From contig CM102286.1 of assembly GCA_046563655.1 (NCBI GenBank), positions 10,540,001 to 10,604,000 of the forward strand: a stretch of 64,000 nucleotides of DNA, read 5' to 3'. This DNA comes from Yuukianura sp. NJ FZ-2021 (lineage: Eukaryota). How positions within the stretch are numbered: position 1 is the stretch's first letter; every line of letters begins with the position of its first letter. Of this stretch, positions 11,405 through 64,000 are shown piece by piece. The notes beneath the pieces are model-generated. The model was not told where the DNA came from and did no database searches. It was given only the letters and a program-made list of their open reading frames with translations. Both the position numbers and the translations under genes were made by a program.

Positions 11405-11742
11405 AAGGAAGTGATATTAAAATACCGTACAAGGTCATCTGGACTTAATTTGTAGTTGAATCGTAATTGTTAACACTTGACAGTGATTAGAACAACGCCA
11501 CAGTAAGATGGAGTGTTTTCACATTTTTTGTGTACCCAATGCAAACATAAAAGCAATCATTTTTTTATCTAACTCAATGTCAAGGTCATGCCTGCGCATA
11601 AACACTTATTTATTTAGTCAATTGTGTGGTATAAATACTATGGCTTCGGTACAGTAAAAATTTCTAGTGTCTCTTACCTATCACTTGAAACAACACACTG
11701 TTAAAATTAATACAACATTGAAATTCCTTTAGCACGATAGAA

Positions 11743-31700: not shown

Positions 31701-33424
31701 ATCTCTCATTCAATATATGAGGGTTCTCAGTTTTTTATGCCCAAAATACCCGGGTAGTTCTCCCGCTTTCTATTACGCAGCAACCATAGTGGACTTGGGG
31801 TGAGAGGTGAATCATCATTATCAAGTCATAATCTTTCACAGGAAAGACCTTATTGTTGAAACACTTTTTTACATACAACCCTCCTTTCTTTTTTCCTCTG
31901 AATAAAAACTGACAAAATGAAATCTTTTGGCCATATTTTAGAAAAAAAAATCTAAAAGTAGACTTTGAGTCTTGAGGAAACGTTAGTGTGAAGAACCCTA
32001 GAATGTTCTGTTAGTTTGGGGGAAGCCTCTCAATTGTCATAATTTGTGTAAGGAAGCCTAGGATTTAGAAATTAGTTCACAAGTGACTCAAACCCCTTCT
32101 TCTCAGTCATATCGACTGGCATCCGGACGAAACGTTCAGTTTTACGCTGACTGTCGGACGGACAAGTTGTAACTCAGTGGTTTCTTTCTACGCTTGACCA
32201 AACAAATATTTGTGTCATTAGTAACAACCACAATTCCACCAAGTGGACCAGCATTACTTCATCACTTAATTACTGGTAAACACTTTAAGACTTACTGTAG
32301 GTTAGGTTGAACGTACTAAAAGTTAGGTTAAGTTAAATCTGGGTATTGTCCTTTGAGGTACTTTAGTTCCACTAGGTTAGGGTTAGGTTTTCCTAAGGGC
32401 AGGGTGACTATCACGGTGGATGATCTCACAAAGTTAGAGTGAATTATTTGGGGAGACCCCTAACAACGCCTCCCAATTTGCTTGATTTATTTGAGAGATC
32501 AATTCCTTTCAGCTTTTAGTTTGGTTTTCGTGAAAGCTTAACTTTGGTGTCGTGTATACTTTCATATGCGAATGACTCTTTGCGTCTACCAAAAAAAGAA
32601 AGTATTAGTCATTCCTGGAGGGTTCTTTCTCTTGCAGCGGTTCCTGCAGATTGTTTTGTTGGTGGGTTTTGAATGGAGGGGTAGTTTTTTGGGAAGCTGA
32701 ATAGAACTTTCCCCGCGCACTTGAGAAGATGATGTGTTGGAAGGTGACTTCATCATCATGAGGCCCAAGCATCATCACATGACGAACAAACGTACATAAG
32801 GGAAGGGATTTCTTTGAAAATACTCAAAACTGCTGCGGAGACTCGAACGTCTTCCCCCTTCTTCAGGGGGAGACGCTTTCTCCACTTTCTTTTGCTTTCT
32901 TGCAAACTGAAGTGAACGGAGATAGGAAACAATGGAAAAGACGCCAGACTGGCTCAAAGCTTCGGCGGCAGTGACTCATGCCTTAAGTCGCTCAAATTGA
33001 AGGGGTGGGAAGTGGATGTAAGGAAAGCAAGCATCTTCTTCGGTCTACTTAAACTTGAATGTTTTTGAACAAAACTTCAAGGCTTTCCTTATCCTTCCTG
33101 CTCTTCTGGAAGCTCCTTTGTTTTTATGGTAATGGGCTATCCCTCGAGCTTCCTGTGCAATCGTGGTTAAACTGAAGTGGTTCCTACTTAATATGAACAA
33201 TGAAAAGACGCCAAAGCATTTCAATTCAACTAAACAAAAAAAAAGCTTTTGAATTGTTTCCTTCATTTTCCATTTTTCTCAAATTTAGATTTTAGATTCA
33301 AAACTCTATAAATAAAAAATTGCTAGTATTTCTTGGAAGAAATGGAATAATTGCTGCTGAAAATCGATTCAGAGCGATAATTGAAAATAACTTTTTCTTT
33401 TTTGTTAATTTGCAGACTTCGATA

Positions 33425-36400
33425 ATGTCTTCTTCTGGACCAGTAGAAACCGAAGTTCGCCAACCCTTTAGACGCCGTGAGAAACTCCGCCTGTCGCTTC
33501 ATCTTCAGCGAACAATACAGCCACCAGAAATGAATCCCGCAAAAGTCATCTTAGAACAACACGTTCGGATGATTAGTGCAGACGAACTCGCTCGAAAAAT
33601 TAATCTCCAGCCTCAGTCCAGCGCCAAATTTTTGCTACTCGACTGTCGTGGTTACTTGTGCTATACAGACTGTCATATCCAAGGAGCCGTTCACATCGCT
33701 TGCTCAGATCGGTTCAACCGACGAAGAGTTCAGAACACAGGAGCTTCTATCCTTGATTTGGTCAGTTTGAACAGTCGAAGAAACAAGGGGACCAATACTT
33801 GTCCAATGTCGCCTGTAACCGGTAGTAATGGTAAACTACGGGAAGTCATTGTGTACGACGAGGGTATCACGGATCTCAACCTCGAAGAATCTTCATGGTC
33901 GAATCCTACTTCCTTTGTAATTGCCCATCTCATCAGAGAAAACAGGCAGCCGACGTATCTTAAAGGTAACTAAAACCAATTTTCTGTTTTTGAAATTGAG
34001 TCTACCTTTGGCAAAATTGGATTTGAAACAAATTGCAACTCATTGAAAATTGGTAGGTTGGGGTTACTTATTTATGTACTTTCACCGTAGTATCGAATGG
34101 TTAGATTAATTGAGTTGTAGCAGATTGAAATAATAGCCTATTATAGGTCAGGTTGCATTAACGTGAAAAACGTGCTTCGGATAGAATGTTTGGCCACGTG
34201 AGGAAAAGGCTCTTTTTTTTGTTTCTTGACACAGGACAATTTTTGTGTTTAATTTTAAACACTTTCGTCATTTTTGGTCGTCATTTCCTGCAGGATAGAC
34301 GTCTTTCTTAATTGCAAATATCACGGTAGAAACAAACACTGTGCTATTTTTGGCACTTTCGTTTGAAATACCGCGCTACTTCAAATTTATAGCAGGAACG
34401 GATACTGTTTGTTGTTCAACAGCTTAATCATTGACGTTCATACGCGGTTTCCTTCTGCCAAAACCTCATTTTCGTCTTTTGATGTTTTTGCCAATTCTGT
34501 AAGCAATTTTTGACCAAATAAACCTTGGGTGCTTTGAATATTAAATTTAAATTAGAACTAGTATTGGCAAACAATCAAACTTTATGGACTCGGAGACATT
34601 GGACGCCAATGAATGAACTTTTGTAGATTTGTTTCAATGATGTGTAAAAAAATCCAAAAGTGAATATGGAGCTAGTAATAATTTTATGTTCAACTTGAGT
34701 AGGCTTTCTTTCAAACTAAAAACGACAAAAATTGCGTGGGAGCGGAAAAGCGACAAGGAGTTTTGATTGGAACTGGAGGCACTGGATTATTTGATCCAAC
34801 CTACGCAATTTCCACTCTAATGTTATTGTTACGATCCTACTTTCATATTTCTGGAGGCCAAGAAATGCACAAAAGTAATTCAAACCTTATACAAAATCAA
34901 TTCAAATGTCGAATTTATGGAATTTGAAAATCTGCTTCCATCCAGTCTGTCACTTGTCTGTGTGTCATTCTATGGTAACATAACGTCTTATCGGTCTCCA
35001 GCGGATGTAACCCCATTTTAACATTTCATTATGTTCTGTGGTTAGACTCTCAAAGACAAAAGTTTAAGAAACTAATGGGTGTGTGTACTACGTTTGTGTT
35101 AGGCTGACGAAGAAGTAATTACCATTATCTATCGGAAACCCTTAAACTTTTGAGTGGTCACACAAAAGTACTCTAATTTCAACGGAAGTTAACAAATACT
35201 GAACATAACTATTAGGACTTTGAAACATAAACTATTAAAACTTTGTTTTTCTTTTGTATGGAAAAACCGCAAAGTTAGAGAAAACGATAGGGGCTAGAAA
35301 TAGGGGATGAGTCAGTTTTAGTTAGGGTTGGTGCTTTTAAACCGCTGAAAGTGAATTGGAGGGGAATGAATTGGTGACATAGCACGTTTTGCAACTTAAA
35401 CCTTAGTCCGTTGATTTCCAAAGTTTATGTGTCAACTACTTTCGAAATTGGCAGACTGCTTGGGGCCACCGTATGCGTTGACTCTTTCATGACTTCATAA
35501 GTTTAGTTGCCAAAAGCCTTGTCCTATTTCTATTTTTGCGCATTTCTGGGGGCAAAACCAGCAAAAGTTTCAAGTTTAAACTTTCCCACTCATTCTACGC
35601 CATTTGTCACAAGTCCATGCTTCATTCATGTTTAGCTTTTTGTTTTGTCCGTTGAGCTGGCGTTCAATTGCGTGTTATTGCCACTTCCATTCTGAATTTT
35701 CTCGTTCATTTTGTTTCCGACATGCTTTAGAAAATTCTTGCTGTAAATTTTATAATTGCTAAAGTTAACAAGGAGTAAAATAGCTTGAATCGAAATTTAA
35801 AAAAAGTATTTGCTTAACCTTCTGAAAATAGTTTAATCTATTTTTGGCATAACACGTAGGCAAGGTGTGAAGGGATACTTTGATCTACCTTAAGTGCGAC
35901 ATCGTCACGCGTGACGTGGGGGCCTAAAGGGTGTGTACCCTAAAATTTTTAGGCTAAAATGAATGAATCATCGCAACAAAACGTTCAGACCTTGCTCAAC
36001 TGACAAGGAATGTTTCAATTGTTACGTTGCCAGAGGGCTGACTCAATAGTTCTATGCTATCACATGACATGCTCAATCAGATTCTGACAAAGCGTTTGGA
36101 GCAGGCCTCCTCATCGAGGTGAACGTTGTCATTCCAGCGATGAGTCGACCAGTGCTTTAAAATTTCTGTTCTGTCGCCACATTTTCCGAATTTTCTAGAA
36201 TGTATCATTTGAACACAACGACGACAGGTTCAATTGGAGGGAATTGCGTTAAAGCGGCCAGTTGCAGAAGAATACCAAAGTGTGATTAGGTACTTGGATA
36301 TTTTTCATGTTTGAATGAGCGGAAGTTGTAAGCATGTTTTGAGCCGAGGCGTCTAGAGCCCTTCAAAACGTTGTTCTAACCCTATCCATTTCCCCTCAAA

Positions 36401-38796
36401 ACTAATGTTCCTACCCAGAGTGTTACTATGATTAATCCAACTTCCTACGGTCTCATCTACGAGCCACTTGAATGACTAGTTTTCATGATACCATCACCCT
36501 CCTGATAGTGATTCAGCTCATTTCTCTAACAAAAACAGAGTGCGTGTGTCTGTGTGTACGTGTAGTTGGTGAAAGGCGAGTGAAAGCTAAGGTTCCGTTT
36601 CTAGACGAAGATTAGTGTGTTACAAAAATAGGAGACACGTAGAAGAATTAGTGTTGGACTGAATTAAGGATAGCTTGGTGAGCAAAGACAAGATAGCGCG
36701 ACGATGTTTAGGTTAGCGTAGGATAACCTAACCTAATGGGTCACAGTTCAAGGAAAATCTAAGTGAGTTCCAAATGAAAAGAGGCTTTCCCAGTGTAAGT
36801 TCCAGTTGAGCCCATTAGAAGTTCCCTTGGACAAAATCCTTTGACTCTATTTCATTTCCATGCGAAATCTCAATGGGAATCTCACCACTGGGGATTTCGT
36901 TTCTCTATTAAGGACAAGGCCCCGCAAATTTATGAGTCCCGGGAGTCCTTTTATGGGATTTTAGAGGTTGGATATAATCAGAGTATGGCTAGAGTTGACT
37001 TTCTTTCTTCTCCAGCCACAAATGAAATTAAACCTACAAAATCCAAGCTCTGACTGTGGAAAAAACAAGATCCGACAGCTTAGGTTTCATAAAACTGGGA
37101 AATTAGTTTCTAATCAGACATTCAATTGAGTTCTAGAAGGGGATCTGGATGATAATAAACAAAAGCAGTACTTTATACGGTGTAGGAATCGACATATTTT
37201 CCCGGCATTTTATGAAATTTGAGTGGGCAGAAATTATAACGACGGGAAAGGCGTGGGAGCTCAGAAAAATTCACGCAGCTCATAACATGTTTTGATGAAT
37301 CTTAAAAAAAGCGAGAAAAAAAACGAGCGGAGTTGTTGACATGAGTTTCCGTCTTTTGTTACTTTGATGTTTTTTCGTGTTTCCTATGCCTGAATATATC
37401 AAAAATCGTTTACTATATAAAGCACTCTTTCAATTAGTGTTTTTGATAACAGAGAAGTTGTTTACGAAATATGTCCACTTACAAAAGAAAGTGTTGCGGA
37501 ACTTCTCCGAATAAATGATTTGTTGGCCACCTTGGTCAGTTAGCTAACTAAATGTCCATTCAATTTCTTCCTGGTAAACACTCCTTTACCTTCAATAGAA
37601 AAACGACTAGAAATGTTTCATACAATTTAAAAGAAAATTCCAGACTGGTTTTTAGCGGTTATAACGAAATTGCGTTTTTTACGCGATCCAGAAAATGTAT
37701 CGCTGGAAAGCTGTTTTTTTTTTCAATTAAATTTCCAACGAAAGGATTCAAAGACGTTTGATGTTTTTTTTCTAGTTGGCACTTCTAACGATTCATTTCT
37801 TTTTCTTTTTTTCAGGTGGGATCAAAGAGTTCAGTCGTTACTATAGTGATCTTTGTGAAAACTTCGGAACCCACCCAGATCTCAACATGGACACTTCTAG
37901 TACAGCGTCAATAGGCATTGCTCCCCCACTGACGCTCATGTCCGCACCGCTGTTCCCGCTGCCTCAGTTCCCCATTTCCCCGTCAAATACGAACAACCAA
38001 GCGTTTGAAAATGAACCCCCTACGCAAGTTCTGCCATTCCTCTATGTCGGTAATGCTCGTGATGCGAACGACGCGGATTTACTTCGAAAACTTGGTATTC
38101 GCTATGTCCTGTCGGTAACAACAACAAGTCCTCTTCCCTTTAAAAATGGCGGTGGAGCGCCGAAGCTTGGTCTCTCAGATCTTTCAAATCAAGAGCCAGA
38201 ATTTCACACAAAACTGATTCCAGTATCTGACAACCTTGTGGAAAACTTGGCTCCATACTTTGAAGAAGCGTGTGATTTTATTGGTAAGTCGAACTGCTTC
38301 AATTTGGCTTCTTTTAGTTTTTTATTTCAATAAATTGAATTTATTAGTCTAACTCCATTGTTTCTTTTGGCATGTTTACAGAAGAAGCAAGAACTTCTGG
38401 CACGCGCGTCCTCATCCATTGTCACGCAGGAATTTCCAGGTATAAATCTAAAACTGAATTTAAATAGCTTCACACTTTCCGTTATACAAAATTTAATTTC
38501 GTTACTTAATTTAATTTTTTAATGATCAATAAAATAATTGATTTTTTTTTATAAATAGATCTCCAACTATCGCCATCGCCTATATTATGAAACACATCAA
38601 TTTGAGTACACTGGATGCCTACGCCTTCGTTCAGAAATACCGGCGTATCATCTCACCCAACCTTAACTTCATGGGTCAACTGATCGAGTACGAAACAAAA
38701 CTCAAAGGTCATTCGAGTCAAGTGGATTCATCTTGCTCCAACAGTACTGACAGCGTAAGCAGTGACACAAGTTCTGCCAGTGAATGTAGCCACTGA
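33425..38796 (+). CDS. Dual-specificity MAP-kinase phosphatase (DUSP10/MKP5/puckered-like); exons 33416-33965, 37816-38283, 38382-38439, 38559-38796
   Basis: Rhodanese/CH2 domain (LLDCR..HIQGA) with basic docking motif NRRR, VLPFLYVG, catalytic VLIHCHAGISRSPT assembled across a splice, and ISPNLNFMGQL. Upstream exons are possible. Confidence 0.92.
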
Positions 38797-50226: not shown

Positions 50227-51339
50227 TACTTAGGTGATCTAGGATGTGTTTCAGAAAATGTCGATTTTGAGGGAGAGTGTTGATTTTAGAGGTCAAAATT
50301 CGATCTTTTTTCACATAAAGTGAGTTGACATGTTAACCTAACCATAGGCGTTCTCACATGAAGTTTATGTGACAAATTAAGATTAGAAAGAACAAATTCT
50401 GACATCTCTGATTTCAAATTTATTGTTAAGGAGACCCTTAAGTCCTCAAGTTTCTTTTTAGTCTTGAAGCTTCCGGATTGTTCTGGAAGCTTCGGTCAAG
50501 TTCTATCGAAGTTAACAAAAGAAGGATTGCGAGTCCTGGACAGTCGACAGTCTTTTCTGACAGTCTTCCTAACATCAACCTAAAAGAACGCATTCTCAAA
50601 GTCTCTTTCTAAAATCTAAGATTTAACTTTTCCCTTTTGAAATATTAAATCAGCAACTAAAACAAAAACAAAAAGATAAAAGATCCATCAGTGAAATATC
50701 ATTTATTTGAATTCCACCACAACAGTACTAACGCATACTATACCTGGACAGGCACTTCCTACAGCTCAGTTACAAGTTACTATATTACAATTCACAATGT
50801 CTACTACAATAACAATCGGCTAATGCAACAACATAAAAGTTGTCGTAGCGCTCGCTGTAGATGCGACACAGTGCGAATTCTTGACTTCGTATTTAGTATG
50901 GGGGGATAGGTACAAGCTTTACGTCCCTGCTTACACTTGTAAAATATTTATCTTTCAAACTCAAACGTGTGCCTTCTCTCATCAGGCAATCAAATGCCCT
51001 CATCTCGGGATTGCCAACCTAATTTCGACCTACCAAATTACAACCTAATTTCGACCCTACCGATGTGGAAAACGAACTCCTCCAAAGCAGCACCTCCTGT
51101 CTCCTAGTTCAAATATAGCTCATACAATTCGACTCGGTTGTTTTGTGATTGACCTCACTTGACCTTCCACGTCTTCCGCCTATATCGGTAGTGCGGCGTA
51201 ACCATTTAGCCGCAAACCGAACATTCTTCGCATTTAGATTTCCTCTCAGTGATCCAGTGACTGTCACCCAGTGACCCAGTTCAGTTCAAGGTCAACCTAG
51301 TAACCTCTGACCTGTCCATTAACCGTGCCACTCTTCCCC

Positions 51340-51990
51340 ACTTTGTGGGAGCAAGTTACAAGTTACGCCGCAGCTCCGGCTCCTCCATTTTCTACGCCTT
51401 GTCGACGACGCCCGCTTCGGCTCATAAACGTTCAACGTCCTGGCTACGCCGCCCCACTGGCTCGACCATGGGTTCTTCCGCAACTGCTATGCTGCAACAA
51501 GCGGAGGCCTCCTCAATTATCTGGATCGTGTCGCCTGAGGTTAACGCACCTCATCCGAAATTTACGCCCTACGTCCCGACTAAACCAGCCTCAGCCTGCG
51601 CTATTCTCTACGCCGTGTGCCACTACGCAACGTCGGAACTCCGTCCGCAAGGACATACATGGCCTGGATCTTCGGGTTAGGTCACCCCCTCCGCCGCCGT
51701 ATGCATCCTCTCCGTTTCTGCGCCCTGACGACGACGCCCACTCAGGCTCAATGAACTTCTACGCCCTGGGAGCTCTGTCCGCAAGGACACACATACGCCT
51801 GCATCGTTTGGTGAGGTCACCGCTACGCCGAAGCATCCATGCTCGTCAGAGTCTGCGCCCTGCGTCGCGGGACGCCGGACGTAGATCGTCCGGTGAGGTC
51901 ACCCCTTCTCCGCCGTACCCAACCTCTCCGGTTTTGGGCCCTCTGCGCTCTGGACACTACATCCCCGCTAGTCTCTGCGCCCGCTCGTGA
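51340..51990. repeat. GC-rich degenerate tandem repeat
   Basis: Recurring GTCCGCAAGGACA(T/C)ACAT, AGGTCACC and TCTACGCC motifs. GC content is markedly above the flanks. Confidence 0.55.
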
Positions 51991-52249
51991 ATATGTTAAC
52001 CTAACCTAAGGAAAACCTTGCTTTAACCTTCATATTCTGTCTTACTCTTTCACCTCATGTCAATTTCCACATTCCCAATTTTAGACCTAAGACATACATT
52101 TAGAGGGAGCTAATGATCGTTTACACCTTTGGAAGGCTTTCCTCAGTGTACACGAGATGGCGGAAAGAGGTGACACAGCCGCGGTTTGTTTCAACTACAC
52201 CGTTCACCGTGTGCTTTGGTAGAGTTGCAAACCATTGAGAAAAAACTTC

Positions 52250-53295
52250 CAAATTTTTTCACGTTTTCCAGTCTTCTTTGATACATTTGGCGGATGAATC
52301 ATGCACACACTTTAAAAGTGTGACTACAAGTCTCTTAATTAAAACCTTTTTTTGTCGGTTGTTCATTTAACATATCGACTAAACGGTGACACCACTTGAA
52401 GAACAATTCAACCGTCTTCGTGTTAACCATATCTTATGGTCAGGAGTGGATGTTCAGTGATATAACCAGTGATTGATTAATTCCTGTGGCACAGGTTATG
52501 ACCTAGTTGGGACTTTATAGCTCTCACCCTATATCAGGATGGAGCTCAAATTTCGAAATTTGGAAAAGTTTTTACACTCGCCAAAGTAAAGTTTCGTTTT
52601 CTCCCTGAAAACCTCCAACATGTCAATACGTTTATGTGTGAGGCATCGATACAATTGTCAATTGAGAAAGCTGCAATCCCTAAGAATATTGAAGTTAATC
52701 ATGAAGGACGAAACTATGTACTCCAAATGGATACTGAAGCACAAAAAAAAGTTTGATGATATTCAAGCATCTCTCGAATCGAGCGAACAATATCTTTCTT
52801 GTTTACCCAAATTAAGTGAAAAAAACATTAAAGAACTTTCTAATGATGTGAGTAATTATAACATTAAAAAGCAATTAACCAATTAAAAAATGACACTTGT
52901 CCAGGTCTTGATGGCCTCACAAGCGAATTTATTTTAAAATTTTGTGACGAATTCTCGGAAATCTATTTTTGGTTATGGAAACAATCTATATGTCAAAACG
53001 TAATGCCTAAGAGCATGCGTGCTGGCGTACTCAATTTAATTTATAAAAAAGGAAATCCTAACGAACTTTCTAATTGGCGTCCAATAATTTTGTCAAGTTG
53101 TGACTACAAAGTTTGCTCTACCATATTTAAAAGTCGCATTTAAAATGTTATAGCTAGTCTAATTTCTCCAGCACAAACTTGCAGTATCCATGAAAGAAGT
53201 AATTTTGATAATCTTCATTTTGTACATGAAAACGTAAATAACGCCACCACAGGCGCGTTTCTTTCAATCGATCAAGAATCTGGTTTTGATAATAT
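52250..53295 (+). mobile_element. L1/Tx1-like non-LTR retrotransposon ORF2 remnant, cut by the Gypsy LTR
   Basis: Frameshifted peptides GDHH (endonuclease end), CPGLDGLTSEF, LIYKKG..NWRPIILSSCDYK, LISPAQT and LSIDQESGFDNI (RT domains 0-3), ending exactly at the LTR. Confidence 0.85.
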
Positions 53296-53520
53296 TGTAA
53301 CGAAGTCGTTGACCTTTCGGTTACTCATCTTATGGTAAACTCATTTTCATAACTTTTGCGAATTGTAAAGTTAGCATGCAAAAACATATTGATTGTTATT
53401 TTACATTGTGTAAACTTTGGGCCCATAATGTAGCCAGTCCTAGTCTTTTGAGAGAGTTTAGAGGTCGTGAGAGGTCAAGTTCAGCCCCAGTATCCGGTTA
53501 GCGTAAGGCTAACCGTGACA
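53296..53520 (+). repeat. 5' LTR (225 bp) of the Gypsy element, followed by a primer-binding site
   Basis: TGTAAC...GTGACA termini. Perfect stem CGGTTAGC/GCTAACCG at 53495-53515. TGGTGGACGAGCC starts 2 nt downstream (53523). No second copy was found in the window. Confidence 0.75.
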
Positions 53521-53591
53521 AGTGGTGGACGAGCCAAGTTGTGTTTTGTCTAAAAAGTTAGATTAAAACTGTACAGTACTCAGCCTTTTGC

Positions 53592-54452
53592 ATGTCCGAA
53601 GAAGAAAGTTCTTCAGAAATGGCTACAGCTAATGTAACTAGTGACCTTAAGAATGTTTTAAGGTCAATCCCTAAGTTCAATGGAAAAACGAACATAGAGT
53701 TGTTCTGTGCAAGATGCGATGCAGTGATCGCAGCAGGTCAGATTGACACGAGGTCAATTATCCTGAATTTCCACTTCCTAATTGAAGGAGAAGTCTAAGA
53801 TTGGTGGAGTTGGACACAGTTAAAGTTCATTAAGGACTTAACGGCCCTTAATCGTGACCAAAAGTGGACAGAACTGAAAGCGGCTCTAAAAATGTTGTAC
53901 GAGCCGGAGTCAGTTCGTAAAGAAGCTAAAACCGCTTCAAAAACAATTCGGTTTACTGACTGTGCGTCAGCGGGTGAATACGTCACCAAAAAGTTATGTT
54001 ACTTTGGGATTATGAATCCCAATATGAGCGATGAGAACCAAGTTGAAAAGTTAATTAAGGGATTACCTGAGAACTTGCGGAACATTATGTATTGTTCAGA
54101 ACCAAAAACAACGGCTGAATATTTGCAAAAGTTGCGAAAATTAGATAAGCCGACCAGTAATGTGATGAAAGAATTCACATTTAAATCACAGAACACTGCT
54201 AGTAACAGTCATACTAGAAAGGTTGTCGAGAGTTCGTCTCGAACAACGTCCTGATAAGGATGATCGTCGTCTAAATCGGTTAAGCCAAATGGATGTTTCT
54301 ATTGAAAGGAAACTGATTACTTACTAAACTGATTACTGATTACTTAGGACTGTCCAAAGTGTCCTTATAAAAGAGAACCGAAAAGCTCAAGTTCAGTGAT
54401 GAATGTCACAAGTGATGTCACTGATGATGTAGTTTGTTCAAAAAACCAGTAG
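53592..54452 (+). pseudogene. gag: Gypsy gag with premature stops and a degenerate CCHC knuckle
   Basis: IPKFNGK, ..LIKGLPE.., GCFY*KETD...DCPK. Ends at TCA AAA AAC CAG TAG. Confidence 0.8.
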
Positions 54453-54479
54453 AGAAAGTGGAGTTCTACCACTTTAAAA

Positions 54480-56076
54480 ATGGAACAAACACCAAAACTA
54501 GGTAGTCAGATTTGTGATAAGATCACAAATGTAAACAAACACAAAAGTTGTGTTGAAACAGCTGATGTTTCATGTTTAGTATTAAGTCCTATTCTGCGCA
54601 GGTCAGGAGGGAAATCTAGTGCAAAAGTCAGAAAAAGTTCTAAAATTGCAAAATCAGGGCCGTACACCTCAGTTGAAGGACAAAAGTTGTCAGCTTCATT
54701 TAGAGATAGGCGTATTGGACCCAAAATAGTTACTGAATTTTTGATCAGTGGATCAAAATTCAATATTCGAGTTGATGAGGGCAGTAACATAAGTGTTATC
54801 AGCCCTGAGTTCTTGTCAAAAGTGACAAAAGCTGTACATAAAAGTTATGCAGTGCCGACACTGACAGTGCAGACGGCCCTGCAGAAAATCCAAATTTCGG
54901 AGTTCGTTGAATTAAAAGTAATTCACGAAGGTGAAAGTATCCTGTGGGGCTTTCACATTATGCCCGGATTTTTAGAGGAGATTTTGTTAGGAACAGATTG
55001 GACAACAAGGTCCAAATGTTCAAAATCTCAAAATTCAAGTCCAGAAATCGGCGAAAGTCTAAGTGACACAGTTCCCGATTTACCAAATTCAGATGAAATG
55101 TCAAAAGGTCAAGTTGAAAATCCTGTGTGGAAATTCAAATTAGTCGAGTCAGTTACGCTACCTCCGTGGAATTGCGTAAAATTAAAAGTTCATTGCCCTA
55201 AGTTAGTTTCAGGTTCGGTTGTGATGAGTCCAAACCGAGATTTACAATTTGAATATATGTTAATGCAGCCGTATGTGTACGCTGTCATTAAAAATAGCGA
55301 GACGGACCTGTGGGTCACTAACCTGAACAGAGTTCCGGTTACAGTCAACAAAAACACCACAATTGCTACTGCGCATGCGTGCGCAGAAAAAGCTACAGTA
55401 ATGGTTCTAAGTGAACAAATGGAAGAATCTCAAGTCAAAATTAGTCCCAAGGTCAAGGGTGACCTTCAAGTTAAGTTGGGGGAGCAGTTGACCCTCCATG
55501 AAAAGCGGGAAATTTTGAAAATATTAGAAGATTATTCGGATGTCTTTGTGACAGACGAATCAAAAGTTGGTAAGACCAACTTAGTTAAGCACAAAATAGA
55601 TACAGGGGATCATCCGCCTGTCCCACTTGTACCATGCTTCCTTTGTGGAACGGGGTAGGATCAAAGAGAAAGTACAAGATTTGTTCAGGGCCGGCATTGT
55701 CGAAGAGTCGACCTCGCCATGGGCCGCACCTGTGGTATTAGTACCAAAGAAAGATGGAACTTGGAGGTTATGTTGTGACTTCCGGAAGTTGAATTCCATC
55801 ACAAAGAAAAATGCATATCCTTTACCAAGGATGGAAGATGCATTAGATAGATTGGGCGGAGCCAAATATTTTTCAGTTTTGGATTTAGTCTCTGGGTTCT
55901 ACCAAATTGAGGTAGATGAGCAAGACAGAGAAAAGACCGCCATTGTAACACCAGATGGGTTATACCAATTTAGACGTCTTCCAGTGTGATTATGCAATTC
56001 ACATTCGACATTCCAGTATTTGATGGATATTGTTCTATCAAAATTAAAATGGTCCAGTGTCTTAGTGTACCTGGAT
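54480..56076 (+). pseudogene. pol: Gypsy pol 5' part: protease, dUTPase-like spacer, RT up to YLD
   Basis: Frameshift near 55627. TGA at 55987 replaces the G of the usual P.GL motif, and the frame continues LCNSHSTFQYLMDIVLSKLKWSSVLVYLD. Confidence 0.9.
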
Positions 56077-56396
56077 TGTGGATGTGTATTATTCAAAGTA
56101 TGATGGGTTGGTGTTGGATGATATTAATGTGAGGGGGCTTTCTGATGAAGACAAGATACATTTGGTGGATTTGGATTTGCCTACGAACATAAATGTTCGT
56201 TATCATGTTGCTTATATCCCTGCGAAATTCCCTCGAATATTCACTACTAACTTGAACAAGGTTGAATTTTTTGCTTGTAACAATGAGGCGCAAAAAAAAG
56301 GCTACTTGGAATCGGGTGAGCTTTCATACTTTTTTGAATGATTTATACACCCGCCCAGTTGAGGTAGTTACAATTGATGATGAGATTCATGAATAA
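56077..56396 (+). other. rep: Endogenous CRESS-DNA virus Rep fragment (C-terminal SF3 helicase)
   Basis: YDGLVLDD (Walker B), IHLVD..NINVRYHVAYIPAKFPRIFTTN (motifs B' and C). After a frameshift in an A-run it reads KATWNRV..DEIHE-TAA, with AATAAA overlapping the stop. Confidence 0.8.
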
Positions 56397-56404
56397 AATG
56401 TTTA

Positions 56405-56970
56405 TTAAGCAGGGAGCTGCTGTTGTCTAACTTGAAAGTAGTGGTATTGTTGTAAATCTAGTTTTATAGTAGTAAGTTGTTTATAATTTTCTTGAATTGA
56501 GAGGTCTAGTGCTGCTGTTATGTCCGTCACACCAAGGAGTAGGCCCCCGTTGGATTCGTATTCAGCTACGGGTGCGACGTTGTTGTTTAGTTGAGTCCAA
56601 TAGTGGGGGGTCCAATTGTTGCCTGTCCATTTGGAAACATTTTCCGTTCCCCACCAGCTTTTGTATTGTCGTGGGCATTTAAATGTGAATTTTTTAGACC
56701 GCCCTATGCCAATTTTTTTGACTCCATTGTTTTGAGTCCAAGTCCGGGGGTCGACGGATTCTGGGGTAGAATAGCGTTGGAGAAAGTCAACATGAATTGG
56801 ATGGTCCCTGTGTTGGATGATTTGGGTTGGCGCTTCGAGTCCTTTTTGGTCGTTGAGTTTGTATATAACTGAGGTGATCTCAACTGGTTTGACGACGTAG
56901 GTGGAGCCTGTGTATCTCATCATCATCCAGTTTTGAGTTTTTGTGAAGAGGATGGTTCTGGTTTTGATTG
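56405..56970 (-). other. Endogenous CRESS-DNA virus capsid-like ORF fragment, convergent with Rep
   Basis: Open, intronless 173+ aa frame ending 8 nt from the Rep stop with its own AATAAA. Beta-rich composition (GVKKIGIGRSKKFTFKCP, TIKLDLQQYHYFQVR). The assignment rests mainly on position. Confidence 0.6.
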
Positions 56971-57007
56971 TAAATGTAAATGTAAATGTAAATAGGACAA
57001 CATTTTA

Positions 57008-57376
57008 TTGGTACGATTTAGAACAATTCAGTGTCTATTATTGGACGTTAGTAGAAAAACAGCAGCGGAGAAGATTTTCTCAGAGTATTCTTGGATTGAG
57101 TTTAATCAAAGTCAACAAGAGTGGGAAGTTTATTTGGGGAGACATTTGGATCAGTTTTTCAAAGATCGAATTTATCGAGTGATTGAGTTAATTGAAGAGT
57201 ATTCTGACGACGACGACAGTTACGAAGAGCACATTAGCTACAAGTTTCGTGAATGTTTAGAAGACTGGCGGTATAGTTACATTGACATTGAACTTTCAAA
57301 TTTGAATTCAAGCCGAGCTCTCATCAATCCAGTGTTGTTTGACTACCACTTCACCGTTTATGAATCCGAATCATGA
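57008..57376 (+). other. Densovirus NS3-like ORF fragment
   Basis: Acidic/aromatic ORF directly upstream of and overlapping the NS1 (57360) and NS2 (57373) ATGs, which is the ambidensovirus layout. Confidence 0.5.
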
Positions 57377-58776
57377 GCCAAATGTAGACGCCAGAAGCCC
57401 CAATCCCTCCAATCGCTCCGTCTACGAAAATCGAAGTCTGTCGAAAATTTCGAGATCCAAGCGTCGAGCTCCTTTGGAAACTCACGATTCAACACCAAAA
57501 AGACGCGATGGGTACATCTCATCGGATTCCAGGGACGAGGCTCTGAGTATGATGACGCTACCTTCAAGCAACATGTACAATCCTTCACAGAAGATGTCAT
57601 TGCCACATGCCACTCAAGATGCACCCAAGGATTCAGACTTTGACGCCGACAACAGCCACTTCCATGTCGTCTTCAAGTATTACCGAGGATCCCGAGTTTT
57701 TGAACTCTGGAATCATTGGATTAATCGATTCAACTATTACTTCAAGGCCAGCGACGTCTCGAATGTCGAGCGCCTCCGAGAATATTTACATCGCGGGGAG
57801 GGACGGGACATACTATACGAAAAAGCTAACTACGTCCCGGACTACATCCCACGTGACACTGGATTTCAGCGTCTCCGAGCATCCAACAGTAAGTACCACT
57901 TGACAATTATATTTTCAAACTACTTTTTATGATTGTCTCTTGTTACTTTCAGATTCAATCAGCGAAGTTCGGTCCGAAAATTAGGCAAGTGAAAGCCCAA
58001 ATTCCGAAGGACCACCCAATTCTCCAGCAGTTGATGAACTTCAGGGATCACACTTGGCAACAGTCATGGAAGGACGTCAAGGTGGAGACGCACCAAAAGG
58101 TAAGCGTCGCGTCGTCTTACTATCGACGATGATTGAAAAGTACAAGCCAGAGACATCTCTTGAATTTATTCAAGCAATTCAAACCTTAGGCACCAGATTT
58201 GAAAAGGATTTTCTTCAATACAATAACGTTTCAAGCCAGTTTTCTTATTTACTAGATACTCAAATTTACAATAATCATCTTCAAAACAAGTAGACTCCTT
58301 GGCTTTCTCTTATTGAAACTTGTCCAATTGATGCTCTTTCCATTCGAAAAAATTTATTGTCAGTTGAAGACACTGAAGGATGGCTTCTTTCAATTCTTGA
58401 ATTTAATTCAATTAATCCTTTTGATTTTGTGTCTACAATTTATGAAGTTATGGATAGACGTAAGCCTAAAAACAATACAATTTGGTTTAAAGGTCCTCCC
58501 AATTGTGGAAAGAGTCTGATTGCAAATTCAATTGGAGATAGTTGTAGTTATGCTTTTCGTGGGGATCAGCCTGACCCACGTGAAGCTAGGTTTGTCTTTG
58601 CAGGCTTAGCCACAGCACGTGTAGGGATTATGAATGAATTTCGAGTTTATAGTAATACTGTAGATAAAGTTTTACTCATTCTTGAAGGAGCTGACGTAAT
58701 TAACGACGTCAAATGTAAACAAGGCGTAAACATTCAAAGAACTCCAATTATTATTACAACAAATGGAAATGTTTGG
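57360..58776 (+). other. NS1: Endogenous densovirus/parvovirus NS1 with overlapping NS2-like frame (57373-58132) and a 64-nt intron at 57889-57952
   Basis: HUH motif SHFHVV, EYLHRGEGR, Walker A GPPNCGKS, Walker B IMNE, motif C PIIITTN. Two in-frame TAG stops. Confidence 0.9.
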
Positions 58777-61053
58777 AGCCCTACTTTTGAAGTACACCAG
58801 CAAAGGCTGTTGACGGTCCTGCAGAGGCTAAGAGATGCCAACTTAACTTTGAAAAGTTCAAAGTGTAGTTTTGGAGAAAGCAAGATTAAGTATCTTGGTC
58901 ATTTGATTTCTGCAGACGGAATCGAAGTTGACCCTGAAAAAGTTTCAGCAGTGACGAAATTTTCAGTGCCGTCAAATCAGACCCACATTCGTTCTTTTGT
59001 GAACATGTGTGGTTATTATAGGCGTTTTATCAAGGATTTTGGTAAAATAGTTACGCCACTGAATTTTCTTTTACGTAAAGATCAACCTTTTGTTTGGGGT
59101 AAAGAACAGCAAAGTGCGTTTGACACCCTAAAACTTGCATTAGTTTCAAGCCCTATCTTAGCGTTTCCGTTAGAAAACTGTTCTAACGAAATTCATTGTG
59201 ATAGTTCTGGATATGGAGTTGGCGCGACATTGGTCCAAATCCAGGAGGGTAAGCCCAAGGTCATTGCTTATGCTAGTCGTAGCATGACAGACATTGAAAA
59301 ACGATATACGGCAAGTGAGCAAGAGTGCTTAGCTGTCGTATTCGCAGTTCAGAAGTTTAGGCCGTATGTGTATGGTACACATTTTTCAGTGCTCACTGAC
59401 CACAGTGCGCTAAAGTGGCTATTTTCTGTCAAAAACCCACATGGTAGGTTAGCCCGTTGGTCGTTCTTGCTACAGACGCAAGATATGACGATTATTCATC
59501 GTGCGGGTAAAGCGTCTAACGATGTAGACCCACTGTCAAGATATCCAGTAGGATCGGCCGAGTCTGTGGATTCGTCAGACCTACTACTGGTTAAGTGCAC
59601 TTCAAAAAGTAAACAAAGTGAAAGTGAAATTCAATCAGTTTGTAATTTCTCTCATTCTCAAGTTAAGTCACTTAGTGAGAAAGTGTTAAGTGAAGTGTTG
59701 TCATTGGAAGGAGTCAACATGCAAGTTCAGCAGCAGCAGGATCCTTGGATTCGAAAGATTGTGACTTTCATCCAAAATGCTGAAAACAAAGTGAAACAGT
59801 CGAAGAAACCTCCAGTGAAACACTTAGACGACTTCAGTTTACAGAATGGAGTTCTGTATATTGCTAATTTTGAAGAAAGTGAACGTTCGTGGAGATTAGT
59901 TCTTCCGAAAAGTCTTCGGAAAGACGTTCTGAAGTCGATACATTCAAGTGACCTAGGTGCTCACTTAGGAATGACAAGAACATGGATTTTGGTAAGATCT
60001 CGTTTTTATTGGCCTGGTATTTATCGTGACACCAGAAGATTTGTTCTAGGATGTCAGATTTGCCAAGTACATAGAGTTAGACGAGGTCAAGAATATGGAA
60101 CAATGCAAGATTTCGAAGAGGTCAGTAGTCCCTTCGAAAGAGTAGGCGTTGATTTCATAGGCCCTTTTGTAGCGTCACGTGGTAACGCAAATAAGTATGC
60201 GTTAATCATGGTTGATCATTTTAGCCGTTACGTAGAGTCCGTTGCTGTTCCGAATGCGACAGCAGAAGTAGTAATTGACGGAATTGTGAATAAGATCATT
60301 TTACGGCATTCGTTGCCAAAAGAGTTCGTTTTGGACCAAGGGAGGCAGTTCACTGCTAATTTAGTGAAATTAGCAAAAGAAAAGTTAAAGTTCAAGGTGA
60401 ACTTTACGTCCCCTTACCATCCTCAAGCAAACCGATTAACGGAAAGGTGCAATCAGACCCTTAAGATGTCGATTGCAAAACTTACAGAGCCTGATCAAGC
60501 AAATTGGGACAATTGTTTAAGTTCAGCTACTTTCGCGTATAATGTAACGCGACAGGAAAGTACTGAATATAGTCCATTTTTTTTAGTCCATGGTAGACAG
60601 CCTAGACTGCCTATAGACATGGATTTACCAGTTGATGAAACTGTAGAGGTTAGGACACCGTTTCCTAAAGAGTTAATGGCTGCTAGGTGCAAAGCCATTG
60701 TTAATTCTAGAAGAGCTCATGAGAAATCTAAAGTTAGATTTGACAGGAATAAGAGAGATAGTCCTTTTGTCATAGGTGACAAAGTGTTAAGAACAGTACC
60801 GACAATTAAGAAAGGTTTGTCCCAGGCATTTTTGCCTAAGAAAACAGGACCATTCGTCATCGTGAAAAAAGTTTCCGATGTAAATTTTCAAATTAACGCA
60901 TTGTTCGGAAAGAGAAAGAAGCCATTTACAGTTCATGTGAGGGATTTGACCCCTTACTACAGTGATTTTGAGTCAGACTCATCATTTACATCTGCAGAAA
61001 TAAGTTCCAGATCGAACGAAGTCACTAGTTCAAGTACAAAAAGTTGTACTTAG
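58357..61053 (+). CDS. Chimeric 898-codon ORF: NS1 SF3 helicase fused to Gypsy RT C-terminus, RNase H and integrase
   Basis: Continuous frame ..RTPIIITTNGN-VW-SPTFEVHQQRL..KCSFG..YLGH. Expression is not demonstrated. Confidence 0.75.
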   Translation: MSVEDTEGWLLSILEFNSINPFDFVSTIYEVMDRRKPKNNTIWFKGPPNCGKSLIANSIGDSCSYAFRGDQPDPREARFVFAGLATARVGIMNEFRVYSNTVDKVLLILEGADVINDVKCKQGVNIQRTPIIITTNGNVWSPTFEVHQQRLLTVLQRLRDANLTLKSSKCSFGESKIKYLGHLISADGIEVDPEKVSAVTKFSVPSNQTHIRSFVNMCGYYRRFIKDFGKIVTPLNFLLRKDQPFVWGKEQQSAFDTLKLALVSSPILAFPLENCSNEIHCDSSGYGVGATLVQIQEGKPKVIAYASRSMTDIEKRYTASEQECLAVVFAVQKFRPYVYGTHFSVLTDHSALKWLFSVKNPHGRLARWSFLLQTQDMTIIHRAGKASNDVDPLSRYPVGSAESVDSSDLLLVKCTSKSKQSESEIQSVCNFSHSQVKSLSEKVLSEVLSLEGVNMQVQQQQDPWIRKIVTFIQNAENKVKQSKKPPVKHLDDFSLQNGVLYIANFEESERSWRLVLPKSLRKDVLKSIHSSDLGAHLGMTRTWILVRSRFYWPGIYRDTRRFVLGCQICQVHRVRRGQEYGTMQDFEEVSSPFERVGVDFIGPFVASRGNANKYALIMVDHFSRYVESVAVPNATAEVVIDGIVNKIILRHSLPKEFVLDQGRQFTANLVKLAKEKLKFKVNFTSPYHPQANRLTERCNQTLKMSIAKLTEPDQANWDNCLSSATFAYNVTRQESTEYSPFFLVHGRQPRLPIDMDLPVDETVEVRTPFPKELMAARCKAIVNSRRAHEKSKVRFDRNKRDSPFVIGDKVLRTVPTIKKGLSQAFLPKKTGPFVIVKKVSDVNFQINALFGKRKKPFTVHVRDLTPYYSDFESDSSFTSAEISSRSNEVTSSSTKSCT

Positions 61054-61539
61054 AGTAGTGATGCAAAATAGTGCAACTAGTAAAACGGACAGTGTTAGTT
61101 ACACAAAGTCCAGTACCTCCAGTCAAGGTCAGAAGAGTTCATACAGGAGGCAGTTGCCTATAAAAGTAGTTCCTGACATTGATTCTAGTTCATTTCCAGT
61201 TCAAAACCCTGACGGTGCTGACGACGAGTCGTTTGAAGAAGTTCAACTCAGAAGGTCAACAAGAGTACGTAAGGCACCGAAACGCTATGGTTGGTCCAGC
61301 GAAGAAAACTGACAGTAAGTTCTGGACTAAGGTATAAGTACCTTCGGTTCATGCACAGTCGCCTGTGTTCAATTTTCGAAATTGGAAGTTAGTTTGTAAG
61401 TCACTTTGTAGGAATTAGTAATTTATATTATTGTATCTTCAGAGAGGAGCAATTGGCTCTCCTCAACATCGGTCCAGATGACGAAGAGGAAGTTGATTGG
61501 GATTTAGTCAATGGCAGTAGTAACCACTCTGTGGGCGCT

Positions 61540-61731
61540 AGTAAAAACAAACTTGACCTGTAGGTCAAAACATGTAAACATGACCTACTTTTCGACACCC
61601 AACTTTTGTCAGTGCAGGACACCCAACTTTTGTCAGTGCAACTGCACTGACAAAAGTTGCACTGTCTGCGAGTAAAAACAAAAACAAAAACAAACCTGAC
61701 CTACAGTTCAAAAATGTAAACATGACCTAGT
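61540..61731. repeat. Local duplication plus perfect 17-bp hairpin
   Basis: AGTAAAAACAAA..TGACCT..ATGTAAACATGACCTA twice, ACACCCAACTTTTGTCAGTGCA twice, and inverted arms at 61624-61640 and 61643-61659. Confidence 0.8.
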
Positions 61732-62339
61732 TGCACTTTCAGAGTGCATGAGAAAATGATGATCTCATTTCTTCTCCCAGTGGAGAAGAGTATACGAGAG
61801 TAATCTTAGTTTAGCCCGTGGAACTGAGATGGGACCTTTCCATCACAGTTTTACTGGCTAAACCATGGTTTTTGGGAGGTGTGGTTTTTGAGAAAGTGAG
61901 ATGCATCCCCCACTCCTCATTCCCACCCTGATGTGTCTTTACACAAAAAGCAGTTCTTCTAAAGCTTGGAGCGCGAGTGTTCCAGAAGTTAGTTTTTTTC
62001 TGTGTAACTTCACCATCTCATTTCTCATATCCCACCATTGAGTTTATGAGTTTTGTGCAGAAAAAGATTAAACTAACTTTTGGAACACCCGAGCCAGAGT
62101 GCGAATATGTCATAGGTGAAAGCAGAAATGTTTAAACAAAAGTTTCATCTTTGACAAAGTAGCATGTGCAATGTATCAATTTGTTATGACACTTAATTTT
62201 TATGACTTTCTTTCGCATTAATCAATACCCTGTGTGGCATCTTTGGAAATTTTGGTATTCAAATTTAGTTTAGTTGTTGAGCTTACAAATCAAAGTGTTC
62301 CAAAAAAGTTAGAACAAAAATTCGAAAACAATGACGGTG

Positions 62340-63718
62340 ATTTGTGGAATATGTCTTGTAGACATTTTGGAAGATGTGAGCGATGTGTTGTGGGCGATTT
62401 AGTGCTCACACGTATTTCACAAGTAAGTGAAAAATAATTTCTGAATATTTTTGATTCATTTTCAAAAAAAAATTTCTATGTTGTTTTACAAAAAAAAAAT
62501 AATTCTTTCGCTTGTTTTGAAATTCGTTATCTTTTGTTGTTTCAGACGATGCCTCCTCATTGCAAATCAATCTTGGATATATCGAAAAATTGATAAAGGA
62601 CGTGCGAAGGCAAAAGCTGAGAAAAGGCCTTACGTCAAACCTGAAAAATTCGAGTAAGTTTTTTTACCATACCATTTACCATATTCTTAGTAATAATTGT
62701 AATTTTGTATTTGTTTTTAGACCGCAATGTCCATTGTGTTTAACTCCGATGGAATTTAACCCGGAAACGAGCGAGACTTCTCCGTCCGTGGCTGGGATGA
62801 GGATTATTTTGAGCGAAGATGAGACGCCAAGACCAAGGTAAAATTTCGAAAAATTAAGCCCTATTAATTAATTAATTTGGTATATGAAGTTGAATGTTGT
62901 CTGTTTTGATTAGAACTCCACCACTTACCCCGCCACCCCCACCGCCCCCACCCACTGCACATGCCTCGACTTCGACAGGTTCAACATCCCCGTCACTTCT
63001 GGAATGCAGGTAAGTATTTTATTTTGTAAGAAAAAATTCGGCTTACAATTTTAAAACTAATCTTGGTTTGTAAAATTTCTTTTTGTTTTTTAGATGTATC
63101 AGCAAACAACCAAACTACTGCGAGTTGGTTGAAGAAAAAGTCAGGCAGCAGCGAATGAAAATTTATTCCGAAAAAAAACGTGCGGATGATGCCGAGGCAG
63201 TTCTGACAGATGTTTTGAGCCAAATTCCGCAACGACAAACCAACACTGAGGAAGCTGCACCGAATCAACATAAGCGACGGAGGACAGATTCCGATTTGAA
63301 CCGAGCTAATCCTGGACCGTCACGGAATTTGACCCCGACAACTGCAGGACCGTCACCTAATTCTTCACAGCCGACTGCAGGACCATCACGGAAATCGCTT
63401 CCGCCAAGTTCAGGACCGTCACGGTTGCCAACTGCAGGACCGTCACGGAACTCGGTCCAGGCAACTGCAGGGCCGTCGCGCAATCCACCAGAGCCGACTG
63501 CAGGACCGTCACGATATGTAGTGAAGCCGTATGCAGGGCCGTCACACAATCCAACACAAGCAACTGCAGGGCCGTCGCGCAATACAGCACAACCGGCGGT
63601 AAGAAATGCAGAATGTGACAACTCTGCTCGACAACTTCAGGTCAGATTGCGACGTCTGACACAAGAAGAAGTTGACTCGGTCTACATTGATTCCGGGGAG
63701 GAGGAGGCGGACCATTAG
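62340..63718 (+). CDS. Multi-exon uncharacterised gene with CxxC motifs, a polyproline stretch and a TAGPS repeat tail
   Basis: Short GT-AG introns, CERC and CPLC motifs, and a final exon with nine GPS-centred repeats (mostly 33 bp). The start was not located. Confidence 0.55.
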
Positions 63719-63861
63719 TTTATGCTTTATTAAATTTTGAGTAAAATATTTTAAAACAAATTTCAATTCAAAAAAATCTGAAAAAGAAACTGTTAATATG
63801 CTAAGACAATAAGCTGTGTATTACTTGGGATGTTGAGTTTTAAAAAAGTTTCAACACATCT

Positions 63862-63975
63862 ACCACCACCACAACCACCACAACCCCAAGAAACACCACC
63901 ACCACCACCACCACCACTCCCAACAAACACCACCACCACCACCACTCCCAACAAACACCACCACCACCACCACAA
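63862..63975. repeat. (CCA)n-rich microsatellite
   Basis: Interrupted CCA/CAA runs. Confidence 0.9.
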
Positions 63976-64000
63976 TCAGTTATAAACAACCTTTTAAAAG

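Follow-up and report, generated by a model that had tools for sequence, protein, structure and literature searches.

Endogenous parvoviral elements (EPVs), viral insertions nested in Ty3/Gypsy retrotransposons, and fusions of an endogenous parvoviral replicase to unrelated coding sequence are the described systems closest to the locus reported here. This locus lies in a 64,000-nucleotide (nt) stretch of the genome of Yuukianura sp. NJ FZ-2021 (GenBank assembly GCA_046563655.1, contig CM102286.1, positions 10,540,001 to 10,604,000 of the forward strand), hereafter called the window, with positions counted from its first letter. Within it, a copy of a Ty3/Gypsy element is interrupted in its reverse transcriptase (RT) by a 2693-nt insert, and a truncated parvovirus-like NS1 gene at the right-hand end of the insert reads in frame into the remainder of the Gypsy pol gene. 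The locus belongs at once to the EPVs and to the viral insertions nested in Ty3/Gypsy elements, both of them known classes.

As in other EPVs, an NS1 fragment with HxH and superfamily 3 (SF3) helicase motifs is found in host DNA, with stops, frame changes, and a 3' truncation. Unlike other EPVs, the fragment interrupts retrotransposon coding sequence and continues in frame into the pol of that element, and its identity to the nearest relatives, all of them unnamed, does not exceed 69%. In Aedes, insertions derived from nonretroviral RNA viruses have been described as embedded in or flanked by Ty3/gypsy long terminal repeat (LTR) retrotransposons (PMC5497376), and they share with the present locus the nesting of viral sequence in a Ty3/gypsy element. 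The present locus differs from them in three respects: its donor is a DNA virus, its surroundings are gene rich rather than a transposon-rich cluster, and the RT active-site motif is broken at a point that can be mapped to a single base. The guinea pig enRep-Myo9 is a fusion of a 3'-truncated endogenous Rep to a host gene that is conserved across species, transcribed, and translatable, as reported (10.1101/572735). Both cases feature a 3'-truncated parvoviral replicase in frame with an unrelated coding sequence, but the partner here is a transposon pol instead of a host gene. Finally, the element that received the insert has the protease, RT, RNase H, and integrase order of Ty3/Gypsy (Metaviridae) pol, with RT and integrase profiles as in that group (Pfam, tblastn). 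It departs from this design in its RT, which the insert divides at YLDD, in the damage to gag, protease/RT, and the tail, and in that no LTRs were found around this copy.

The features of the interrupted element are as follows, all on the plus strand unless stated otherwise.

53595 to 54250: gag (Retrotrans_gag; Pfam, translation), with an in-frame stop at 53796-53798.
54251 to 54452: gag/pol boundary with a zinc-knuckle-like stretch and several in-frame stops (translation).
54453 to 55619: protease and pre-RT region, 401 open codons (weak gag-asp_proteas match in Pfam, tblastn frames).
55621 to 56076: fingers and palm of RT, ending with the YLD of YLDD (RVT_1, 53.9 bits, profile positions 1-120).
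56077 to 58769: insert of 2693 nt, in place of 8 letters of the Gypsy RT (run contigs).
56077 to 57493, no strand assigned: left part of the insert, no Pfam match, with open frames at 56066-56341 (plus), 57004-56405 (minus, 199 codons), and 56996-57376 (plus) and a 6-nt microsatellite at 56952-57001.
57494 to 58293: N-terminal half of NS1, with the HxH nuclease motif near 57657-57671 (tblastn, translation).
58294 to 58769: NS1 SF3 helicase core (Parvo_NS1, alignment).
58770 to 59094: Gypsy RT thumb and connection, restarting directly behind YLDD (Pfam, alignment, tblastn).
59095 to 59475: RNase H domain (Pfam, invariant acidic columns).
59905 to 60945: integrase (Pfam, alignment), comprising a zinc-binding H2C2 domain (59905-60075), the catalytic core (60130-60423), and a C-terminal SH3-like domain (60847-60945).
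61051 to 61312: broken pol tail, with an in-frame TAG (61051-61053) followed at 61059 by a gap of 8 nt relative to other copies.

The insertion and its borders were resolved with contigs (Logan) from four public runs, X1 to X4, all of them DNA, which were aligned to positions 53000-62000. X1, X2, and X4 derive from one sample, and X3 derives from another study and carries another organism label. Contigs of X1 (depth, 279) and X4 (depth, 187) join 56076 to 58770, skipping the 2693 nt and carrying 8 other letters between the two points, which shows that uninterrupted copies of the same Gypsy element are present. The interrupted form is contained in X1 record 6, a single 2751-nt contig (depth, 55) that spans 56047-58799 and includes both junctions. 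The left junction is also carried by X4 record 25 (55954-56298), and the right junction is also carried by X2 record 14 and by X3 record 21 (57890-59424). Junction-bearing contigs are found in all four runs, covering two studies and two organism labels. In tblastn alignments with Gypsy relatives, RT homology stops at 56076 and restarts at 58771 in the same phase, and NS1 homology ends at 58773. The junctions, together with the uninterrupted copies in the runs, indicate that the chimera is real and not an artefact of assembly. No letters are shared between the two sequences at the joints, which fits blunt end-joining. No aligned contig has a lower depth than the insert, the Gypsy parts being approximately 3 to 10 times deeper (Gypsy bins of X1 sum to approximately 170 to 560); these copy number estimates derive from contig depths, and Logan contigs through repeats may be mosaics. 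The low depth of the insert and the existence of empty sites identify the chimera as the point at which a 2693-nt insertion in one Gypsy copy ends on its right-hand side. The locus is therefore a cleanly resolved fossil of a DNA virus in a retrotransposon, with borders known to the base and the empty site provided by sister copies, which is useful for dating and for understanding how parvoviral DNA enters germline chromosomes.

The reading that we favor, with a probability of roughly 65%, is that the in-frame NS1/pol junction is incidental, a by-product within a Gypsy copy that is decaying. The 2693-nt insertion struck a single member of a multicopy Ty3/Gypsy family, at the DNA level on this reading, and no less than its rightmost 1.3 kb comes from a parvovirus-like genome (NS1/Rep gene). 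It took the place of 8 letters that directly follow the Y-L-D codons in the active-site motif of RT, and its right end, 2 codons past motif C, would have come to lie in phase with the remaining pol by a 1-in-3 chance. The viral DNA was probably end-joined at a chromosomal break and not acquired by template switching during reverse transcription. On this account the 919-codon frame that crosses the junction would be a by-product and most likely has no function. It has no RT palm, its helicase is devoid of the arginine-finger region, and neither gag nor protease is in frame with it. This reading is preferred because the junction is the edge of a low-copy insertion, the pol tail is broken, a second form of the locus has lost the frame, and no similar fusion protein was found.

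The second form is X2 record 14, which has the same NS1/RT junction but in which 6 nt take the place of 89 nt at 58945-59035. The resulting net loss of 83 nt breaks the frame 175 nt after the junction. The same contig links 53420, in the 5' leader of the element, straight to 57161 inside the insert. Deletions of this type arise in reverse transcription, and the combination of this joint with the shared junction is what would be expected had NS1 been captured into Gypsy RNA or cDNA by template switching and then copied in trans, giving more than one copy. Template switching has been proposed for RNA virus insertions beside Ty3/gypsy elements (PMC5497376). Hints of partial copies come from X4 as well: record 28, a contig of 1133 nt, matches the window over its first 362 letters only (57688-58049) and departs from it at 58049, and the X4 depth along the insert ranges from 7 to 91. 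Further partial copies of the NS1 fragment may exist elsewhere in the genome. A mobilized chimera is nevertheless highly improbable: the insert has the lowest depth and is represented by one contig in X1, no LTR pair surrounds this copy, and the second form might be no more than the other allele. In addition, the left 1.4 kb of the insert, with its long opposite-strand frame, fits double-stranded DNA better than a single mRNA.

The NS1-like gene occupies approximately 57494 to 58769 and accounts for no less than the rightmost 1.3 kb of the insert. Its N-terminal half contains one sure frame change (around 57850-57950), one possible frame change (around 57600), and in-frame stops at 57982-57984 and 58291-58293. 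The HUH nuclease domain is not in the frame of the helicase, since the HxH region (57624-57845) is in a different frame and two in-frame stops stand between them. In the helicase core, Walker A (GPPNCGKS, 58492-58515), Walker B (58621-58638, a hydrophobic run ending in NE), and motif C (58747-58764, TTN) follow each other in order, in columns that are invariant among six NS1 relatives. This piece is 68% identical to the relative P0127 and keeps all 57 columns that are invariant across seven aligned rows.

The NS1 coding sequence is cut 2 codons after motif C, whereas the relatives extend at least 60 residues (63 to 145) beyond this motif, and the window has no equivalent of this extension. The missing region includes an arginine that aligns with the "ERM" of the solved NS1 structure 9kbj. 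By analogy with the Rep protein of adeno-associated virus, this residue is probably the arginine finger. The closest NS1 proteins are unnamed, have 285 to 591 amino acids, and are encoded on contigs of 2.9 to 4.3 kb. As no named virus was matched, no subfamily can be assigned; the locus documents a parvovirus-like NS1 lineage that has only unnamed relatives. No related virus contigs were found in collections of viral or metagenome contigs, and a search for parvoviral terminal hairpins or inverted repeats retrieved only short pairs at chance level. The 64-kb window has no match in Rfam.

The left part of the insert (56077-57493) has no relative among 1.84 billion representative sequences and no match in PDB or Pfam. 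Two of its open frames (56066-56341 and 56996-57376) present weak tblastn matches to the NS1 relatives that are inconsistent with each other (best E value, 0.005, to a 2.8-kb target). The 199-codon minus-strand frame (57004-56405) is long for a sequence with 40% G+C. It was considered as a remnant of a parvoviral capsid gene, and this assignment was dropped: the frame has no relatives among the same 1.84 billion representatives and no match in Pfam or PDB, and its fold, predicted from the single sequence, has a pLDDT of 28.7. The idea that the insert is a circularly permuted ambisense genome was dropped together with the capsid assignment, as the checks did not support it.

The frame that crosses the junction is free of stops from 58294 to 61053 on the plus strand (919 codons from stop to stop in the standard code) and is closed by the TAG at 61051-61053. 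An earlier note, made from the letters of this DNA alone, had described an 898-codon stop-free frame from 58357 in which the Walker A, Walker B, and motif C regions of NS1 run directly into Gypsy pol. That frame is real and lies inside the longer one, and its composition is confirmed by Pfam, tblastn, and translation. The in-frame ATG that had been pointed out (YEVMDRRK) is located at 58450 and is the first in-frame start, leaving 867 codons. The NS1 helicase, with its three motifs, is followed at 58769/58770 by the Ty3/Gypsy RT thumb, RNase H, and integrase. In Pfam, residues 31 to 160 match Parvo_NS1 with 75.4 bits (cut-off, 20; profile positions 84-210 of 271), whereas the tail of RVT_1 at residues 163 to 203 (profile positions 161-203 of 205) reaches 21.4 bits, which is under its cut-off of 29.6. 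Behind these come RT_RNaseH (117.6 bits) and RT_RNaseH_2 (107.9 bits), Integrase_H2C2 (69.3 bits), rve (47.8 bits), and Integrase_p58_C (27.8 bits).

The RNase H and HHCC/DDE motifs, which had been read as apparently intact, bear out this description. The acidic residues D303, E344, D369, and D412 of RNase H, and H550, H557, C587, and C590 together with D620, D681, and E717 of the integrase, all fall in columns that are invariant across eight aligned sequences; these are presumably the catalytic columns. The 3' pol of the window keeps every column that is invariant among these eight sequences. The chimeric open reading frame (ORF) has no RT palm, and gag and protease are not in frame with it. 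The claim that the helicase is cut after motif C and lacks the region of the arginine finger also stood, given the extension of the relatives described above. Proteins combining NS1 with RT or integrase families were absent from three protein searches (0 of 4, 0 of the 120 listed among 1127 matches, and 0 of 103), and a limited literature search found no case of a parvoviral helicase joined to a retrotransposon pol.

Outside the chimeric frame, the Gypsy copy is decaying throughout: gag, the gag/pol boundary, protease/RT, the upstream part of NS1, and the pol tail are all broken. The stops that the earlier note had reported in gag, the 5' RT, and the upstream NS1 were all found, along with frame changes. 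The gag stop is private to this copy, as the letter at 53796 differs in every matching contig of X1 and X4. At the gag/pol boundary, the contigs reveal indels relative to other copies at 54250, 54270, 54322, and 54330, and a 2-nt gap at 55619 shifts RT to another frame. The 5' RT contains an in-frame stop at 55987-55989, inside a conserved P-x-G-L stretch. An intact RT palm with YxDD is absent from this copy, in which RT is cut after Y-L-D at 56076 in addition to carrying the stop at 55987. By tblastn, the 5' RT, in an alignment that ends at 56076, is 76% identical to P0007 and the 3' pol is 52% identical to it; the nearest Gypsy protein in the databases has 63% identity. At the other end, the conserved end of pol (RRSTR..RY), which is in frame in relatives, is displaced to another frame that runs up to 61312 (ORF 61004-61312). 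Other copies have neither the stop nor the 8-nt gap at 61051-61059. Because these two changes sever the conserved pol tail, the 3' pol was not spared damage.

No LTR pair was detected, as there is no direct repeat between 51000-53800 and 61250-64000 (best match, 31 nt; E value, 0.45). Contigs of the runs also join across 59068-60437, 59737-60620, and 59786-60923, with depths of 105 to 283, which shows that the Gypsy family has abundant internally deleted copies that lack parts of RNase H and integrase.

Several observations weigh against an incidental origin of the frame. Although agreement of frames at the junction is a 1-in-3 event by chance, the 6.2 to 6.3 kb of coding sequence that can be scored contain 9 to 16 disruptions, and yet they leave a gap of 2.76 kb. 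The earlier note had suggested setting the stop density against that of the rest of the element. By that comparison the open run is indeed longer than evenly spread damage would give, with a probability under uniform placement of 0.047 for 9 disruptions (strict count), 0.034 for 10 (middle count), and 0.0017 for 16 (liberal count); the run was chosen post hoc for its length, and the statistic is marginal under strict counting. The 5' part of Gypsy has 10 disruptions against 2 in the 3' part (P = 0.017), or 6 against 1 (P = 0.059). Of the columns with a conservation of 95% or more in 111 relatives (those with at least 900 amino acids among the 120 listed, 9 shorter ones having been dropped), this copy retains 42 of 42 in the 3' pol and misses 2 of 7 in the 5' RT. 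In the helicase, the departures from columns invariant in the relatives (6 of 63) are all conservative. The locus is also found under a second organism label: X3 differs from the window by 27 letters (approximately 1.8%) over 57890-59424 and has no gaps there. If the locus is old enough for a divergence (d) of 0.01, the probability that the frame would have stayed open under neutrality is 0.003 to 0.3.

Other results temper these points. At the 90% level of conservation, the 3' pol misses 5 of 67 columns and the 5' RT misses 4 of 20 (Fisher P = 0.20); at the 80% level, the counts are 15 of 124 and 10 of 43 (Fisher P = 0.087). Neither difference is significant, and comparisons of this kind have little power. 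With 0.2 to 0.5% of neutral change, the probability that the ORF stays open is 0.05 to 0.79. Of the 541 differences from other copies, 40 were listed, and the 29 of these from gag onward were scored, the 11 upstream noncoding ones being dropped. Among the 28 listed differences that lie in clean frames, half (14) are synonymous and 16 affect codon position 3. This suggests that much of the 1 to 5% divergence is divergence between lineages under selection that predates the insertion, and not decay in place, so that fewer neutral hits are expected in the ORF.

The long open run between damaged flanks is also what a retained chimera would leave behind. In such a case the host would keep and express the ORF from the ATG at 58450 as a truncated NS1 helicase joined to RNase H and integrase, possibly as a dominant-negative protein or decoy against a related parvovirus or as a domesticated integrase-type gene. 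The length of the run, the damage on either side that ends at the borders of the ORF, the retention of all NS1 motifs as well as the strictly conserved pol columns, and the conservative nature of the helicase replacements would agree with this. So would the junction in X3 record 21, where, under the second organism label, the initial 1.1 kb of the ORF is free of indels. Antiviral activity has reportedly been described for an endogenous parvoviral element, which would count as a further precedent. On the other side, the ORF was selected for its length and the statistic is marginal under strict counts, the helicase has lost the arginine-finger region together with all that follows, the conserved end of pol is severed, the second form in one run is frame broken 175 nt past the junction, and a similar fusion is absent from all protein searches made. 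Retention of the chimera by the host is quite unlikely on these grounds, even with the conserved fusion of a 3'-truncated endogenous Rep to a host gene as a precedent (10.1101/572735). The earlier note had left the choice between a chance frame match and a retained helicase-integrase chimera; chance is favored here, and the retained chimera is neither demonstrated nor refuted.

A more specific form of this reading, to which we give only a slim chance, is a host gene of combined viral and transposon origin that would encode a truncated NS1 ATP-binding core followed by RNase H and integrase, again from the ATG at 58450. Its product could act, for example, as a dominant negative that poisons the NS1 hexamers of a related virus or tethers them to DNA. 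The footprint of such a gene would be a long open run between damaged flanks and a junction present under two organism labels. If the chimera were expressed and constrained, it would be a rare host gene made from two parasites and a candidate antiviral factor.

The divergence between the two forms of the locus bears on a further explanation. Their NS1 parts differ at 13 of 1785 letters (0.7%) and their 3' pol parts at 75 of 2520 (3%), a mosaic that is typical of gene conversion or copy-choice recombination. Recombination with, or conversion from, a younger intact Gypsy copy may have overwritten the 3' pol after the flanks had decayed, or, alternatively, the 3' pol may have been drawn toward an intact copy during polishing of the assembly. 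In either event the open run would reflect the youth of the segment and not selection, and the 159-codon helicase piece would be open by chance. Intact-looking copies of the family are abundant, at approximately 3 to 10 times the depth of the insert, and 477 nt without a disruption are unremarkable at the rates of the flanks, from which approximately 1 to 2 hits would be expected (arithmetic from the disruption counts). However, the 3' pol and the 5' part diverge about equally from high-depth family contigs (4 of 557, 15 of 301, and 19 of 429 letters for the 3' pol; 5 of 250, 2 of 250, and 19 of 473 for the 5' part). Logan contigs through repeats may themselves be mosaics, and the stop with the 8-nt gap at 61051-61059 is private to this copy. 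A patchwork origin of the 3' pol is therefore unlikely as a whole, and a chance junction at the edge of an insertion in a decaying copy remains the preferred explanation.

The remainder of the window includes the following features.

2158 to 3513, minus strand: ORF of 451 codons with FAD_binding_4 and ALO (D-arabinono-1,4-lactone oxidase type) domains.
5457 to 6752, minus strand: ORF of 431 codons with the same two domains.
9615 to 11000, plus strand: ORF of 461 codons with the same two domains.
11722 to 13470, plus strand: two open pieces of a cytochrome P450 (profile positions 43-274 and 330-458).
13871 to 14416, on the strand opposite to P450 and adjoining it: C2H2 zinc-finger frame.
33296 to 33973, plus strand: Rhodanese domain.
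37776 to 38333, plus strand: weak dual-specificity phosphatase domain (26.2 bits, under the Pfam cut-off of 33.5).
63281 to 63612, plus strand: eight copies of a 33-nt unit within a 214-codon open frame that encodes a P-T-A-G-P-S-R-N-like repeat peptide and has no Pfam match.

Just 5' of the Gypsy copy, at 52500-53150 on the plus strand, short frames resemble the N-terminal part of a non-LTR (LINE-type) RT, with a "PGLDG" stretch; this label is a reading of the translation, which has no Pfam match at an E value of 0.001. The surroundings are otherwise ordinary gene space, with the three FAD-binding/ALO-type frames, the P450, and the Rhodanese and dual-specificity phosphatase domains. The three FAD_binding_4/ALO ORFs appear to form a small family of tandem genes that resemble sugar-lactone oxidase genes and have very long exons, and the layout of the Rhodanese and phosphatase domains is that of a MAP-kinase phosphatase-type gene with an intron of approximately 4 kb.

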